DNA from: a virus
Lineage: Duplodnaviria; Heunggongvirae; Uroviricota; Caudoviricetes
IMG/VR virus record: IMGVR_UViG_2645727901_000013
DNA: 12,231 bases
Reading direction: 5' to 3' (one strand)
The position numbers and the translations under genes are program-made. Under the pieces are notes generated by a model. That model was not told where the DNA came from. It saw nothing but the letters and a program-made list of their open reading frames with translations, and made no database searches. This document shows, piece by piece, positions 5,720-10,886 of the stretch (the stretch's first letter is position 1; the number at the start of each line of letters is the position of its first letter).

Positions 5720-6712
5720 TCAGAATGTCAATTTGTTACTGGATTTACCGAATTTGTCAGACATGGCTCCCAGGCCAGCCAGGACATCGACCTGTCGCTG
5801 TCGCCCACCTCCGTGAGCGGCTGGCTGTTGCCAGTAATCTTCGAAGTGACGATCGGGTCCAAAGAACGTCGCAGCCTGCTTCACGAACTGTGTGCCGATA
5901 TTTCCTGTAGCACGTACCCAGGCGGCATACCGCTTCACGCCATCAAGCATGGTCTCCGGTTTTATTCCCTCCCTGATACGGGCTTTCCAGGCTTTGAAGG
6001 CTGCTGACTTGGAATTGCCACCAGCACGTTTGGGATATTCCTGCCAGGCCTGTTCAAATTCCGGTGAATATTCCTGTCGGGCAGAACGCGCTGGCGCAGA
6101 CGCGTCAGCGGATGCATCAATAGTGTTTTTAGTCTCCGTTGTAATCTCTGTAGTAATCTCTGTATTTGTATCAACATTCGGCGTATCCCCTGTTCCGTTA
6201 TGACGTCGGGGGGTGTTCCGTTTTAACGTAATAGCTGTATCGCTGATTGCATTATTGCTGTTACTTTCTGGCGAAACAGAAGAAGGTGTGGTGATGGCCG
6301 CAATTGCCTGTGGGTTGATCCCGACAAACAAAATATTGCTGCATTTCACCCCATCGAGCATTTCCACCGTGCGTAAATCCAGAGTAATAAACCCTGCATC
6401 GCGCAGACGCTTCAGCGCATCTGCGGTTTCCCTTTTCCCGAAACCAAACTGCTCAGCAAACGCCTGGTAGCTTCTTTGCAGTTTGTCGCCCTGAAAACGC
6501 TTGCGATATCCCAGCAACGCTCCGGTGTGCTCATCCCTGACCTCTGTCGGGCGGTACCAGTAAACGATCTCTGAAAGCAGAGCGATAGCCGTCGCATCCG
6601 GACGCCCACTGGGTAGTCGAATATATTTCCACCAGTTCGCAGGTGTAACATTGCCGGAAATATTAATTTGACCAATAGCCATAACTTCCGGTGTGGGGGC
6701 GTAACGGCTCAT
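5720..6712 (-). CDS. Phage replication initiation / replisome organizer protein (O-like; N-terminal organizer domain plus conserved phage C-terminal domain)
   Basis: 330-aa ORF in the lambda O position, immediately upstream of the helicase-loader and helicase genes. Low-complexity central linker (…NTEITTEITTETKNTIDASADASA…). C-terminal segment EYSPEFEQAWQEYPKRAGG…AAFKAWKARI fits the conserved phage replication-protein C-terminus as I recall it. Domain names from memory. Confidence 0.75.
   Translation of the reverse strand: MSRYAPTPEVMAIGQINISGNVTPANWWKYIRLPSGRPDATAIALLSEIVYWYRPTEVRDEHTGALLGYRKRFQGDKLQRSYQAFAEQFGFGKRETADALKRLRDAGFITLDLRTVEMLDGVKCSNILFVGINPQAIAAITTPSSVSPESNSNNAISDTAITLKRNTPRRHNGTGDTPNVDTNTEITTEITTETKNTIDASADASAPARSARQEYSPEFEQAWQEYPKRAGGNSKSAAFKAWKARIREGIKPETMLDGVKRYAAWVRATGNIGTQFVKQAATFFGPDRHFEDYWQQPAAHGGGRQRQVDVLAGLGAMSDKFGKSSNKLTF
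6141..6164. repeat. Iteron-like direct repeat (2 x 12 bp GTAATCTCTGTA) in the linker of the O-like gene; candidate origin element
   Basis: Seen in sequence: GTAATCTCTGTA at 6141-6152 and 6153-6164, followed by TTTGTATC. Lambda-type origins lie inside the initiator gene as iterons (established knowledge); the assignment here is inference. Confidence 0.4.
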
Positions 6713-7229: not shown

Positions 7230-7420
7230 GGACGCACCTCCGCCGTAGTTACGTATTTAACCGGGCTACCTTTCATTGAGATGGTTTCACACATCTCTGC
7301 CGCTTTCAGTTCCGCTGTTTTTCTGGATTTATAGCGACGGTGCCAGACAGATACATCCGTGCGAACTGATACATCGTTTCTGTATTCCGTAGTGGAGATG
7401 ATGATTTCGTAACTAATCAT
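7226..7420 (-). CDS. Hypothetical protein (64 aa)
   Basis: Track ORF; start overlaps the stop of the Rha-like gene (7417-7420). No recognisable motif. Confidence 0.45.
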   Translation of the reverse strand: MISYEIIISTTEYRNDVSVRTDVSVWHRRYKSRKTAELKAAEMCETISMKGSPVKYVTTAEVRP

Positions 7421-8265
7421 GGGCGAACCTCCTTGTCAGAACCATTCAGCCTGGAATCAACAAGTGCAGCGCCAAAAACAGCATCACCAACACGGTCGTA
7501 CAGTTTGCTAGCCAGCGGAGATTCAACGGCCTTAAGCATTGGATAAAGCTGGCTTGTCCAGATTTGATGGATTTCACGCAAATGCAGGTATACGCCTCTG
7601 GCGTTTCGTGCGACAGCTGACATATCAACCGCGTCAGCACCAGATAAATTCTTCTCCATCTGGTTAAAGGCGTTGATGTATGCCTCTTTGAACCGGGCTG
7701 CACGTTTGCCAGTAAAGCCCATAGCAAGGAACGCGAAGCCATCGCGGGTGATTTGATAGCAAGGTAGTTTGCGGCCTGTGCAATCGGTGTAATCACTGGG
7801 CTGAAAATTCAGCTCAGTGAATTCAACAGAGCACTCAAGCGTCTGGATTTTTTGAATAACGTTTTTGTGCTGCTTGCAGAAATATTCGGCAACGGCCAAA
7901 GAAGAGGTAACAGCCTTCCCATGGATAACATCAATTTTAGAGTGAGTTTGGGTAGGGGTGGTTGCCATAGTGACATCCTCATGTGCGAATTTTGAAAACT
8001 CACCACATGGGACGCCAATCACAGAGGTGGTGAGACGTACAGGGTTGGCGTAACCGGTCGCACATGACCCCGGCGCATCTTTCGATGCCCCTGCACGCCC
8101 CACCATAATTTGGATGTGAGGAAACGTGCGCAAAAAAACCGCTGAAGCGCGGTTATGCGCATGTGCGAATTTCAGGACGCCAATCCCGGCACCCGCTTTA
8201 TAAGGTGCGGAGACAGTGTAACGTCCCGAAATTGCAGAATCAATATTTGGTCTTGAAATGATCAT
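7417..8265 (-). CDS. Phage regulatory protein, Rha family (N-terminal start uncertain: 8265 or internal ATG at 7963)
   Basis: Central region GKAVTSSLAVAEYFCKQHKNVIQKIQTL…YQITRDGFAFLAMGFTGKRAARFKEAYINAFNQME matches the Rha-domain pattern as I recall it. The ATG at 7963-7961 (MATTPTQ…) has a good GAGGAT Shine-Dalgarno 7 nt upstream, whereas ATG 8265 has none. However, the frame is open from 8265 and contains an in-frame internal repeat, so the long form cannot be excluded. Confidence 0.7.
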   Translation of the reverse strand: MIISRPNIDSAISGRYTVSAPYKAGAGIGVLKFAHAHNRASAVFLRTFPHIQIMVGRAGASKDAPGSCATGYANPVRLTTSVIGVPCGEFSKFAHEDVTMATTPTQTHSKIDVIHGKAVTSSLAVAEYFCKQHKNVIQKIQTLECSVEFTELNFQPSDYTDCTGRKLPCYQITRDGFAFLAMGFTGKRAARFKEAYINAFNQMEKNLSGADAVDMSAVARNARGVYLHLREIHQIWTSQLYPMLKAVESPLASKLYDRVGDAVFGAALVDSRLNGSDKEVRP

Positions 8266-8348
8266 ATAGCTGCTGATATCTTTAGAACTGTTCTTGGATG
8301 TTTCGGAGCCGTTTTATGCGAAACAGCTCCCCGTTATTGATGTTGAGT

Positions 8349-8374
8349 GAGCCGGGTTACTCCCGGCTTTTTTT
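8349..8374 (+). terminator. Intrinsic terminator oriented for the plus strand (antisense to the early operon); oop-like
   Basis: Seen in sequence: stem GCCGGG (8351-8356), loop TTACT, CCCGGC (8362-8367), then 7 T (8368-8374) on the plus strand. On the minus strand the hairpin is not followed by a U-tract. Lies between the two minus-strand Rha-like genes, the position of the lambda oop terminator. Confidence 0.6.
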
Positions 8375-9081
8375 CATCGCTGCCAACCAATAACCTGAAA
8401 TAACCCCATTTTCGGGTGATACCAGCGAGTCCCTCGCGGTTCTGCTTCCTCCATAACCCGATAAAAAGCAGCCATAAACGGTTCCACAGCAACAATTGCG
8501 CGACGTGACAACAATCCGTCCGGCGTCATGAACTCATGTGTGTCTGTAGGAATTTGATAGGCGTTCACCAGATTGCGGCATTTATCATCTGACAAACCGG
8601 TTTTTGCTTTCAGTTGGCGATATCCGGCATAGCCCTCACGAATAGTGCCCTTTTTAATTTGCTCGACTGTTTCAGCAACGTGGCTGACTTTTTCTTCCAC
8701 CTGAGTGATCCGTTTCTGTTGGCGAACGGCTTCAAGAGCCATCGCGGCAACCATTTCGATTTCGCTCATTGGCTTACGGATCTGTTCTTCCAGTTCGCGC
8801 CAGCGATCTACCAGGCGAGCTGTGAATTCAGGACAGAGCTGTGCGACGACAATGATGCTGTCGCGCTTACCTCGTTCACCTTCGAATACATACGCGCTAG
8901 AAAATCGGCGAGGCCCAAGTGATTGTTTATTCTCAATTTCCACAGTCTGTGGAAATTGGATGATTCCCTTTTTAGCCAGTGTTTCAATAGTTCTCTTAAC
9001 ACTATCTGGTCGGCTTCCCACCAGCTCTGCGATCTCAACGCTGGTCATGGATGCTTTGCCGTTAAAAATTGCGGTGTTCAT
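8374..9081 (-). CDS. Phage regulatory protein, divergent Rha-like (cII-position gene)
   Basis: 235-aa ORF whose start overlaps the cro-like stop (9078-9081). N-terminal TSVEIAELVGSRPDSVKRTIETL…YVFEGERGKRDSIIVVAQL follows the same residue pattern as the Rha domain in the next gene (SSLAVAEYF..HKNVIQKIQTL…ITRDGFAFLAMG). Assignment by pattern comparison only. Confidence 0.55.
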   Translation of the reverse strand: MNTAIFNGKASMTSVEIAELVGSRPDSVKRTIETLAKKGIIQFPQTVEIENKQSLGPRRFSSAYVFEGERGKRDSIIVVAQLCPEFTARLVDRWRELEEQIRKPMSEIEMVAAMALEAVRQQKRITQVEEKVSHVAETVEQIKKGTIREGYAGYRQLKAKTGLSDDKCRNLVNAYQIPTDTHEFMTPDGLLSRRAIVAVEPFMAAFYRVMEEAEPRGTRWYHPKMGLFQVIGWQR

Positions 9082-9368
9082 TGTTTATCTCCTGCGTGTA
9101 TTCCATCCGCTCTGTGTGGTGAACTTGGATTTAGGCTTTTGCGTAACAAGTTAGGAATTCCATCTTCAGGGTGAGGATAAAGATCTGGCCTTAAGCCATG
9201 AGGCGTAACCTTCCATGCAACTACTTCACATACTCGTAAAACGAAACGAGCAGGAATTGTGCTTTTTGAAAACCACTGATTCACCGCTTGCGGCGTCACA
9301 CCAAGATTTCGCGCTATGGCATTTTGCGCAATTAATGCACGAAGTTTGTCGTAATCATTTCCTTCCAT
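9078..9368 (-). CDS. Cro-like HTH regulator (Cro/YdaS-type), first gene of the early rightward operon
   Basis: Divergent from the CI-like gene across a 133-bp AT-rich region. Contains ARNLGVTPQAVNQWFS, a Cro/CI-type HTH signature comparable to lambda Cro LGVYQSAINKAI. No strong SD at the 9368 start, so the exact start is uncertain. Confidence 0.7.
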   Translation of the reverse strand: MEGNDYDKLRALIAQNAIARNLGVTPQAVNQWFSKSTIPARFVLRVCEVVAWKVTPHGLRPDLYPHPEDGIPNLLRKSLNPSSPHRADGIHAGDKQ

Positions 9369-9501
9369 AACAAAGCACCAATATTAACTTTATAAATCAA
9401 GAATACATCAAGTTTAAATTAACATGCAAGTTACAAAAGGATCGAATACACTAAAATCAAGTAAAGATTTATCCTTGTAAAGAAACCCACAGGATTTGGT
9501 C
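9369..9501. promoter_or_regulatory. Immunity switch region (OR-like) between divergent cro-like and cI-like genes, with repeated ATCAAG-containing motifs
   Basis: Seen in sequence: AAATCAAG at 9394-9401 and 9454-9461, ATCAAGTTTAAATT at 9407-9420, ATCAAGTAAAGATT at 9456-9469, GAATAC at 9401-9406 and 9443-9448. Individual promoters and operator boundaries could not be resolved by eye. Confidence 0.5.
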
Positions 9502-10191
9502 ATGAAGAACGTCAAAAACACGGAAAATCGAATAGCCGCGATGCTGAAAGCAAAAGGATGGACTCAGGCTCAACTGGCCCGCAAGTTAGGTGTGAGTGCG
9601 CAATCAGTGCAGTACTGGACAACAGGAAAAACATTTCCACGGAGTGATAAGCTCGCGCATTTATCAGAGATTAGCGGTTATCCACAATCCTGGTTCTTAG
9701 GTGAAGACTCCTCACCAACCTTTTCCTCGCAAGAGAAACACCAGACAAGAACAGATAGCGTCGTATTTAATGTCCTTGATGTTGAGTTTAGTTGCGGTGA
9801 TGGAACTCATGTCCGTGGTGACTTGATAGATGTAGTGCGCTCAATAGAACTTGATCCTGAATATGCCCGACGTCTTGTTGGAAATCGGGCATTCAAAAAT
9901 ATAGAAATAGGTAACGCCAGAGGAGACAGTATGGCTCCCACAATCTCACCTGGCGACCTTCTTTTTCTTGATAAGACAGTAACTTATTTTGATGGCGATG
10001 GTATTTATGCATTTTGTTTTGATGGAGAATGCTACGTGAAAAGGCTTCAAAAAATTGGAAGCAAAATCATGGTGTTATCTGATAACCCCAATTATCAACC
10101 ATGGAGCATCGAAAAAGAGGGGTTAGCTCTGCTTTATATCCAGTCTAAAGTGATCTCATCAGTACCATTCAACATAAACAGATTTGGTTAG
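9502..10191 (+). CDS. CI-like prophage repressor: N-terminal XRE-type HTH plus C-terminal S24 (LexA-like) autopeptidase domain
   Basis: HTH: KGWTQAQLARKLGVSAQSVQYWTTGKTFP. S24 catalytic Ser in GDSMAPT and Lys in YVKRL; candidate Cys-Gly cleavage site in EFSCGDG (as in UmuD). ATG at 9502 has AGGAT 6 nt upstream; the track start at 9496 is a TTG. Followed by a strong terminator. Confidence 0.9.
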   Translation: MKNVKNTENRIAAMLKAKGWTQAQLARKLGVSAQSVQYWTTGKTFPRSDKLAHLSEISGYPQSWFLGEDSSPTFSSQEKHQTRTDSVVFNVLDVEFSCGDGTHVRGDLIDVVRSIELDPEYARRLVGNRAFKNIEIGNARGDSMAPTISPGDLLFLDKTVTYFDGDGIYAFCFDGECYVKRLQKIGSKIMVLSDNPNYQPWSIEKEGLALLYIQSKVISSVPFNINRFG

Positions 10192-10202
10192 TCTTTGATT
10201 TT

Positions 10203-10225
10203 AACGGGCTTTGCCCGTTTTTTTT
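10203..10225 (+). terminator. Rho-independent terminator downstream of cI-like gene
   Basis: Seen in sequence: AACGGGC (10203-10209), loop TTT, GCCCGTT (10213-10219), T-run of 8 (10218-10225), 12 nt after the cI stop. Confidence 0.8.
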
Positions 10226-10255
10226 CTGCCTGAAATATACGATATCAATTTTTTC

Positions 10256-10284
10256 TTGACAGCCTGTTTCCCAAAACATAATAT
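10256..10284 (+). promoter_or_regulatory. Near-consensus sigma70 promoter driving the accessory cassette downstream of cI
   Basis: Seen in sequence: TTGACA (10256-10261), 17-bp spacer, TAATAT (10279-10284). An ATCAAGTTATAATT-like motif (reverse orientation, 10294-10307) just downstream resembles the OR motif at 9407-9420, so repressor control is possible (inference). Confidence 0.55.
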
Positions 10285-10337
10285 CGCACCATCAATTATA
10301 ACTTGATTTGATTCAATTTAAAATTGTTGGCGGATAT

Positions 10338-10886
10338 ATGAAGACACTAAAAGCAACTCCAGAAACAACTAATTTTATCAACTGCGGCTGTGTTACGCTT
10401 AAGGGCTTAGAACTTGATTCCTTTGCATTAAATATTGCAAATTTGCTAAGTGCTGTACGCACATTCCATCTTCTGGATTGTGCTCGCTCAAAGGAACTGG
10501 GCATTGAGGTAATGGAATTTATCCATGAATATGCTCTATCTGCTGCTTCTCCTGCACAACAAAAACAATCCTTCCCTGAAAGCTGGCTGGTTAACCTTCG
10601 CACCCAACGCGAAGCCTGCGGCTTAACAACCGCCGAACTCGCCAGGCTGCTCGATCTCGATGAAGAAATTATCATCCAGTGGGAGAGCGGAGAGTATGAA
10701 CCAACTATCAGTATGCTTATCCCACTGGCAAATATTCTTGGCTGCGATCCGATGTGCCTGTTAACTGGTGAGGTTACTCCTCCGGAGCAACCAAAAAGTG
10801 AGGAGCAGCAACACCATGACGCATCTCAACAAGTTTGCCCCTTATCTCGCGAAGCTCTTCTGCGGAAGAACCAATACCAATGGTGA
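10338..10886 (+). CDS. Two-domain protein: unknown N-terminal domain plus C-terminal XRE-family HTH
   Basis: C-terminal LRTQREACGLTTAELARLLDLDEEIIIQWESGEYEPTISMLIPLANILGCDPMCLLTGE is a textbook Cro/CI-type HTH_3 segment. I prefer ATG 10338 over the track's TTG at 10308. The last ~35 codons overlap two other ORFs, so the 3' end is uncertain. N-terminal ~95 aa unassigned. Confidence 0.6.
   Translation: MKTLKATPETTNFINCGCVTLKGLELDSFALNIANLLSAVRTFHLLDCARSKELGIEVMEFIHEYALSAASPAQQKQSFPESWLVNLRTQREACGLTTAELARLLDLDEEIIIQWESGEYEPTISMLIPLANILGCDPMCLLTGEVTPPEQPKSEEQQHHDASQQVCPLSREALLRKNQYQW

Follow-up and report, generated by a model that had tools for sequence, protein, structure and literature searches.

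A candidate antisense RNA with an oop-like layout at the junction between a Roi-like gene and an IsrK/C4 antirepressor module in lambdoid prophages of Escherichia coli

The candidate transcription unit

The 12,231-nucleotide (nt) virus record IMGVR_UViG_2645727901_000013, referred to here as the window, is the early region of a lambdoid prophage of Escherichia coli, with the early-right operon on its minus strand. Between two elements of this operon, a gene for a Roi-like DNA-binding protein and an antirepressor module controlled by small RNAs, positions 8253-8374 may form a small plus-strand transcription unit. It would give an antisense RNA of about 85 nt, acting in cis on the transcript which reads through from the early promoter PR. 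We consider the chances of this reading to be about even. As far as the sequence can tell, the candidate RNA is oop-like in layout and orientation, and it is unrelated in sequence to the OOP RNA of lambda. The coordinates of all features are given in Table 1.

A terminator scan ranks the hairpin at 8349-8369 first among the terminator-like sites of the whole window. It is formed by GAGCCGGG (8349-8356) and CCCGGCTT (8362-8369) around a TTACT loop, and a T-run covers 8368-8374. On the plus strand the TGA stop codon of the Roi-like gene (open reading frame, ORF, 8374-9081) reads TCA, and the last T of the run is its first base. Folding gives -15 kcal/mol (z = -4.2), and none of 200 shuffled sequences is equally stable. 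The minus-strand side of the hairpin is followed by CACUCAACAUC, without a U-tract, so the terminator should act on the plus strand only. Among the ORFs with family support there is no plus-strand gene to its left which it could serve; those between about 200 and 9368 are all on the minus strand. The best terminator of the window, facing one strand and with no gene of that strand to end, is one argument for an antisense RNA at this place. A strong plus-strand terminator antisense to the early operon had been claimed in a first-pass annotation of the sequence, and the claim is borne out. The bare hairpin pattern is that of a generic terminator, present in many unrelated contigs.

A candidate promoter, P+, is found 67 nt upstream of the terminator stem. 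Its hexamers, TTGAAA and TATCTT, lie where the first-pass annotation had placed them, with an 18-nt spacer. The promoter was described there as weak, and its extended -10 (TG at 8274-8275) was not mentioned. In our sigma-70 promoter scan it reaches 9/12 plus TG, which is not especially weak: lambda pO (TTGAGT-17-CATAAT) has the identical grade in the same scan, which was run on lambda as a positive control and recovers both pO and the oop terminator. P+ is also the only one of the 10 sites of 9/12 grade in the window with a TG before its -10. Both facts argue for the reading given above. By our own post hoc estimate, a same-strand site would occur by chance within about 150 nt upstream of the best terminator with a probability of about 0.06; requiring the TG lowers this to about 0.005. 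A CI operator at P+ was considered and rejected: 8222-8300 has no copy of the OL-type palindrome ATCAA-N7-TTGA, which is found at 10244 and 10291 and, in degenerate form, in OR. No LexA box is seen by eye in the P+ region.

With a start 7-8 nt after the -10, the predicted RNA would run from about 8289/8290 to about 8372 and measure 83-85 nt, in agreement with the 80-90 nt proposed in the first-pass annotation. It begins with a conserved 5' block, GUUCUUGGAU (8290-8299). The variable body, which contains a hairpin at 8305-8330, is followed by a U-rich linker (8334-8348) and by the terminator. The predicted fold has -28.2 kcal/mol (z = -2.76). This build, with a 5' hairpin, a U-rich linker, a GC hairpin and U7, resembles that of small RNAs (sRNAs) of the Hfq type, another point in favour of the reading given above. 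A small plus-strand ORF is implausible, as the sole ATG frame (from 8299) crosses the terminator into antisense roi. A sequence complementary to the conserved 5' block is found nowhere else in the window. Pairing of the RNA body in trans with IsrK, C4, the ant ribosome site or the 5' regions of cro, roi, cI and the N-position gene never beats shuffled sequences. The covariance models of Rfam do not match the plus strand of 8253-8374 at E <= 1, in the window or in the A2, A3 and B loci described below. An exact 12-nt direct repeat, TTGATGTTGAGT, occurs in the linker (8337-8348) and in the cI coding region (9776-9787). Both copies are on the plus strand, so they do not pair, and about 0.16 such repeats are expected by chance in a 2.3-kb stretch.

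The firing of P+, the exact ends of the RNA and its mode of action are inferred. Transcription would start near 8289/8290 and stop at the Roi-like stop codon. The RNA would be complementary over its whole length to the PR read-through transcript, in the intercistronic stretch which separates the Roi-like gene from the antirepressor module. Pairing in cis, as in lambda OOP, would give a duplex of about 85 bp, which RNase III could cleave. Cleavage would split the cro/roi message from the downstream message for IsrK, C4, the antirepressor and replication, and would make the 3' end of the roi message accessible to decay. Transcription from P+, being convergent, would also oppose PR read-through, and the terminator would prevent antisense transcription of roi and cro in the direction of cI.

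P+ stands back-to-back with PisrK, the minus-strand promoter of the IsrK-like RNA. The two promoters are divergent, with -35 hexamers 9 bp apart and predicted start sites about 81 bp apart, so the footprints of RNA polymerase on them should overlap. A bolder proposal is that they form a divergent pair whose members cannot fire at the same time, and that the antisense RNA cuts or blocks PR read-through. The junction would then be a device coupling the CI/Cro switch with a P1-type RNA-controlled antirepressor. We regard this proposal as quite improbable. If true, such a coupling device, previously undescribed, would decide whether expression of the antirepressor follows the main switch, also in the phages converting for Shiga toxin 2 (Stx2) which have the identical sequence.

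Table 1. Features of the junction and of the neighbouring early region (window coordinates, unless another locus is named)
Feature	Position	Strand	Basis
Predicted antisense RNA, ~85 nt	8290-8374	+	start inferred from P+, end from terminator
Candidate promoter P+, -35 hexamer TTGAAA	8253-8258	+	promoter scan; conservation
Candidate promoter P+, extended -10 TGaTATCTT	8274-8282 (TG 8274-8275, TATCTT 8277-8282)	+	promoter scan
Intrinsic terminator: 8-bp stem (6 G-C), 5-nt loop, U7 tail	8349-8374	+	terminator scan, folding
Type-B junction after the same Roi-like gene	1436-1530 of L002 (phiP27); also in L020-L022	+	sequence reading
PisrK: -35 TTGATT (8243-8238), 17-nt spacer, -10 TACACT (8220-8215), start G8208	8215-8243	-	read from sequence
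IsrK-like sRNA, own terminator 8154-8132	8132-8208	-	Rfam RF01394, full length
Decoy sites in IsrK-like sRNA	a1 8183-8177; b1 8168-8160	-	complementarity to C4
C4-like antisense RNA (equivalent to STnc1160 / orf45' of Gifsy-1)	8023-8110	-	Rfam RF01695, full length
C4 target sites, Shine-Dalgarno (SD) sequence GAGGA and start codon	a2 8018-8012; b2 7988-7979; ATG 7968	-	complementarity
Rha-type antirepressor gene	7968-7417	-	Pfam Phage_pRha 2.3e-32; PHROG 821/518
Rha/Ant-like "Roi" DNA-binding protein, 235 aa, early gene upstream of the candidate RNA region	8374-9081	-	Phage_pRha; PHROG 63
cro/YdaS-like gene	9078-9368	-	gene order of window
cI-like repressor	9496-10191	+	gene order of window
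O-like gene	5720-6712	-	1.5 kb beyond the IsrK/C4/Rha antirepressor region

Conservation of the junction

The comparison set consists of 112 loci encoding the Roi-like protein. The junction which follows this gene is of type A in 89 of them and of type B (phiP27) in four, and 19 have neither. In the junction of Stx1 phages and in relatives from Yersinia, Providencia, Proteus and Atlantibacter, the gene that follows abuts the stop codon or overlaps it.

Type A corresponds to three E. coli prophage lineages (A1, A2 and A3), which are 78-80% identical over 8222-8420. Their differences lie mostly between hairpin and promoter. Conservation is concentrated in islands: CTTGAAA, TGnTATnTTT, GTTCTTGGAT and GTTGAG(C/T)GAGCCGGG...CCCGGC-T6-8. 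The variable parts are a 15-nt spacer, the discriminator (with a 6-nt indel), the RNA body and the terminator loop. Conservation thus falls on the -35, the TGn, the -10, the 5' block, the stem and the T-run while the rest varies, which supports the favoured reading.

The first-pass annotation looked to related phages for conservation of the hairpin, and it is found there: the terminator stem is identical in the 89 type-A loci, across the three lineages, with the sole exception of L207. The change in this locus, from C to T, keeps a U.G pair on the plus strand only. The loop appears as TTACT, CACT, TACT or CCACTC. The T-run is uninterrupted in all 89 loci, with a length of seven in 71, eight in 14 and six in four.

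The TTGAAA hexamer of P+ is kept in 87 of the 89 loci (the variants are TTGGAA in L177 and aTTGAAA in L217) and the adjoining spacer diverges. The hexamer is not part of the generic isrK module, which loses its homology at about 8244-8248. In lineages A2 and A3 the -10 is TGgTATTTT, with the same 18-nt spacing. In A3 (L018) the homologue of P+ is the sole promoter-like match in 2.6 kb, which adds to the case for this promoter. The spacer of P+ contains a palindrome, ATGATCAT (8259-8266), which includes the Dam site GATC and spans the ATG at 8265. It is present in lineage A1 only; A2 and A3 have CATTCATA.

Promoter and terminator occur together. Junctions without the terminator, in Stx1 phages and where isrK is found in other contexts, are also without a plus-strand promoter-like site. 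The generic isrK/C4 module is present in 213 phage records, and homology among them ends just past the -35 of PisrK; in other contexts this module is accompanied by neither TTGAAA nor a reverse terminator. A regular-expression search of 341 loci and two scans of viral contigs found the element in this one context, between the Roi-like gene and the isrK module, and beside no other gene.

The second type of junction repeats the layout. In type B the hairpin is GGCCGGt/tttctct/gCCGGCC (-15.7 kcal/mol), with a T-rich tail on the plus strand over the TAA stop codon. The sequence TTGATT-18-TGaTATTGT is found about 55 nt upstream of the hairpin, inside the start of a BRO-N antirepressor gene. The predicted RNA of about 55 nt would be antisense to the SD (GGAG) and the GTG start codon of that gene. 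Both the co-occurrence of promoter and terminator and the repetition of the layout in type B support the favoured reading.

Arguments against the antisense RNA and alternative explanations

Several results weigh against an antisense RNA with a function of its own. Apart from one base of the upstream stop codon, the predicted RNA overlaps neither coding sequence nor a ribosome site, so an effect on a target is less obvious than for oop or sar. We found no RNA-seq or Northern evidence for the candidate RNA region in the literature. RNAalifold gives no convincing consensus structure, with -4.7 kcal/mol and the terminator misaligned. The middle hairpin gives an inconsistent strand signal: G.U pairs are kept on the minus strand in A1 and on the plus strand in A3. 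The number of lineages is small, three in total. Promoter-like sites of 9/12 grade are not rare, since shuffled windows contain 14.6 +/- 4.1 of them, so the P+ site alone proves little. Between A1 and A2, 13 of 14 promoter positions are identical, as against 10 of 23 in the spacer and discriminator (Fisher p = 0.004), which speaks for P+, but A2 and A3 share their promoter sequence, so this conservation amounts to one lineage comparison, made post hoc. Finally, the type-B promoter only reaches 8/12 and is missed by the promoter scan.

The terminator might be just an insulator. It would stop plus-strand transcription, coming from the IsrK promoter region or from further left, before it enters roi, cro and cI. 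The RNA would be a by-product without function, and P+ would be an incidental divergent activity of the PisrK region. The terminator is in fact the best-supported element of the unit, the RNA body is poorly conserved and its structure is inconsistent, and no target in trans or in cis has been found beyond the spacer itself. The back-to-back arrangement of P+ with PisrK, whose region is strongly conserved and A/T-rich, also fits this explanation. Nevertheless, the -35, TGn and -10 of P+ and the 5' block GTTCTTGGAT are kept where their neighbours vary, which is unexpected for an incidental activity. Besides, the isrK modules of other phages have neither TTGAAA nor a reverse terminator, so PisrK alone does not create a need for one. 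We consider the insulator possible, rather on the unlikely side.

A role in the minus-strand message is also conceivable. The hairpins at 8349-8369 and 8305-8330 might serve to stabilise the 3' end of a processed cro-roi mRNA, or might be where pausing or processing takes place ahead of the antirepressor module, and the T-run would be an inconsequential A-run. In lineage A1 the second hairpin is better on the minus strand, with 10 continuous pairs and -15.1 kcal/mol (z = -3.65, as against -1.1 on the plus strand). Both A1 polymorphisms (GGAAC and AGAGC) keep a G.U pair on the minus strand only, and on the minus strand the spacer as a whole folds with z = -3.5. Some form of the 8305-8330 hairpin is found in every lineage, yet it is not the same hairpin, and the z-scores of the body are mixed. 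Assigning a strand from wobble pairs was abandoned, since the cases conflict: three point to minus (A1) and two to plus (A3 and the terminator). Against the minus strand, the plus-strand fold is the better one in A2 and A3, by 6-15 kcal/mol, and both the stem change of L207 and the A3 body variants favour plus. The hairpin has no U-tract on the minus strand and hence is no terminator there, and an uninterrupted A6-8 such as the one kept in 89 loci is not known to have a role when it precedes a stabiliser hairpin. This explanation appears unlikely to us.

Finally, the promoter-like site and the terminator could be non-functional remnants, left by recombination of the Roi-like gene with inserted antirepressor modules, as the absence of the hairpin from distant Roi-like genes and Stx1 phages and the confinement of the element to E. 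coli prophages and to a single context might suggest, but such a relic is very improbable, because stem and T-run are intact in three lineages despite 20-35% divergence of the flanks and an independent type of junction carries an analogous hairpin.

Comparison with known antisense RNAs

Lambda OOP RNA has 77 nt, is transcribed from pO and is antisense to the 3' end of cII; this overlap is the basis of the RNase III-dependent down-regulation of cII. Like OOP, the candidate is antisense to the PR early-right operon, has an extended -10 sigma-70 promoter (a predicted one in this case) and ends in a strong terminator at the end of the gene after cro (-15 kcal/mol, as against -17.2 for lambda). Its predicted size, about 85 nt, is also similar. 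As far as sequence signals go, it has the sigma-70 promoter antisense to the PR operon and the intrinsic terminator of an OOP-type RNA. The differences lie elsewhere. OOP overlaps about 55 nt of the cII coding region (300-354 of the lambda locus, L231), whereas the candidate overlaps a single nt of the stop codon at 8374-8376. OOP is flanked by cII and O, the candidate by the Roi-like gene and the IsrK/C4/Rha antirepressor. Homology to lambda oop is rejected, as blastn-short only gives chance words of 7-9 nt (E >= 0.2); a raised global alignment score is due to a shared composition of signals (TTGA, GC hairpin, T-run).

RNAs which are OOP-like by position, such as OOP-BTP1, have been detected by RNA-seq in other lambdoid prophages (PMC7067206), which also speaks for the favoured reading. 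The parallel with oop drawn in the first-pass annotation stands as regards architecture, orientation, size, promoter grade and terminator strength, and falls as regards coding overlap, neighbours and sequence homology. The upstream gene, which had been likened to cII on account of its position, is instead the Rha/antirepressor-like Roi. The promoter had been placed in the start of the downstream gene, as in O, but the ATG at 8265 is probably spurious and the downstream element is not O. The site had been described as lying between two Rha-like genes; the neighbour is a known type of RNA-controlled antirepressor module and not simply a second Rha gene.

The sar RNA of P22, reportedly described by Liao et al. 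and by Wu et al. (Genes Dev, 1987), is encoded in the immI region. It is antisense to the arc-ant intercistronic region and to the ant ribosome site. The candidate is similar in being a small antisense RNA which would start near an antirepressor module and end in the intercistronic region past the upstream regulator gene. Nevertheless, sar is complementary to the antirepressor ribosome site, whereas the candidate (8290-8374) does not reach that site in the window (7968-7985, with SD and ATG at 7979-7966), and the IsrK promoter lies in between. The sar family of Rfam has no match in the window, and the antirepressor is under RNA control of the C4 type instead of sar. The phiP27-type junction (L002) has a layout closer to that of sar: the RNA predicted there would cover the SD and start codon of the antirepressor gene, so this feature of sar may be present.

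The module downstream of the candidate resembles P1/P7 immI (c4 RNA-icd-ant) and isrK-orf45(STnc1160)-anrP of Gifsy-1. IsrK and C4 RNAs score above the gathering thresholds of their families, the a1/b1 and a2/b2 pairs are present and the antirepressor ribosome site lies in b2, as in those systems. The candidate RNA itself is on the opposite strand and upstream of the module. We know of no antisense or divergent RNA described for P1 immI or Gifsy-1 isrK. In Gifsy-1 the isrK promoter comes directly after antQ, without room for such an RNA.

The IsrK/C4 antirepressor module

The minus-strand module downstream of the candidate (8221-7966) is a complete module of the P1 immI / Gifsy-1 type, within a single annotated ORF of 282 amino acids. 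The IsrK-like RNA matches RF01394 with 62.3 bits (gathering score 50, E = 1.2e-11) and the C4-like RNA matches RF01695 with 75.1 bits (gathering score 45, E = 1.4e-13). Loops b' (8066-8058) and a' (8051-8045) of the C4-like RNA have exact complementarity of 7-10 nt to b1/a1 and to b2/a2. Site b2 extends into the SD and the ATG at 7968. The promoter of isrK in Gifsy-1 has the same geometry as PisrK, and the isrK model of Rfam begins at 8208. An alignment with SfV, ST64B, Lys8385Vzw and Gifsy-1 shows conserved PisrK hexamers and +1 and a hypervariable discriminator; the conservation extends to A3. Experiments in Gifsy-1 have established the isrK promoter, a partial read-through past the IsrK terminator and the processing which yields a C4-like RNA (PMC4825925). 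The structure of the IsrK-like RNA is supported by a compensatory double change in phage PhiR49_2 (L001), where stem 1 (homologous to 8208-8188) changes from GCACC/GGTGC to GCCCC/GGGGC.

The ORF which contains this module is annotated as 7417-8265, and its first 100 codons or so overlie the IsrK promoter and the genes for the IsrK-like and C4-like RNAs. Positions 8221-8246 are near-invariant in all lineages, including third codon positions, with a change in a single sequence at each of 8226 and 8233; this invariance is explained by the IsrK promoter, which the stretch forms. On the other hand, codons 2-6 of the ORF have four non-synonymous changes. Taken together, these facts make the ATG at 8265 an unlikely start, and it is probably an annotation artefact. 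The antirepressor most likely starts at ATG 7968, where the C4 target sites put its ribosome site, and there is an orf45-like ATG at 8106.

A Pfam Phage_ASH match (amino acids 16-110, E = 4e-14) and the PGAP call of an "ash family protein" overlie the IsrK promoter and the IsrK and C4 genes (7969-8265; L017-L019), and the Ash family may largely be translated conserved RNA and promoter sequence. In phages of the cdtI, SfV, ST64B and Stx2a_1447 types (L023-L025, L227, L228 and L230) isrK and C4 are annotated inside ORFs of about 380 amino acids, labelled as antirepressor, peptidase or immunity region, which also look like artefacts. These phages have a separate ORF of about 60 amino acids (VQELNRWFRDGRG...) upstream of isrK, whose stop codon overlaps the isrK -35.

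Prophage context and neighbouring genes

The signals discussed above, their conservation and the elements around them are shown by the present analysis. Phage PhiR49_2 is 96% identical to the window over 7400-9400. Several Stx2a- and Stx2d-converting phages are 99.5% identical over 8222-8420, E. coli O55:H7 RM12579 is 100% identical there, and this stretch has matches in 267 of 5,426 complete E. coli genomes (about 240-270).

The Roi-like gene is translationally coupled to the cro-like gene through an ATGA overlap. Its product matches PHROG 63 ("anti-repressor Ant", 3e-46) and Phage_pRha, and it is labelled Roi in PhiR49_2. The operon continues with the gap, the ORF with a Rha domain (7417-8265) and small ORFs. 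These are followed by O-like, DnaC-like and DnaB-like genes, and then by DUF968, RusA and a Q-like antiterminator. Neither a nut nor a tR1 site can be recognised between cro and the gene after it.

Other features of the window are worth recording. The cI gene is followed by a terminator (10203-10219) and then by a strong plus-strand promoter, TTGACA-17-TAATAT (10256-10284). Two palindromes, ATCAA-N7-TTGA(T), at 10244-10259 and 10291-10307, flank this promoter and probably represent OL operators. The N-position gene (10308-10886) codes for a helix-turn-helix protein of 192 amino acids (PHROG 4836, "CII-like regulator") and is not an N homologue. A second, weak isrK-like Rfam match is found on the minus strand at 1088-1161 (21.6 bits, E = 0.41), directly downstream of the Q-like antiterminator gene (1195-1749, DUF1133 and Phage_antitermQ). 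This is the same order as antQ followed by isrK in Gifsy-1, and the match could correspond to a short terminated RNA from a late promoter.

Significance

The local annotation may be corrected in one respect: the start at 8265 of the "ash family / Rha" ORF is probably spurious and lies over a promoter and two regulatory RNAs. As for the candidate RNA, if it is real, it would be a non-homologous addition to the small class of terminator-bounded antisense RNAs in early operons of temperate phages, which includes oop and sar. Its place is where two immunity systems meet, the CI/Cro switch and the antirepressor controlled by C4 and IsrK. As nearly identical sequences are found in Stx2 phages and in many E. 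coli genomes, any effect of such an RNA on induction would bear on the biology of Shiga toxin phages.

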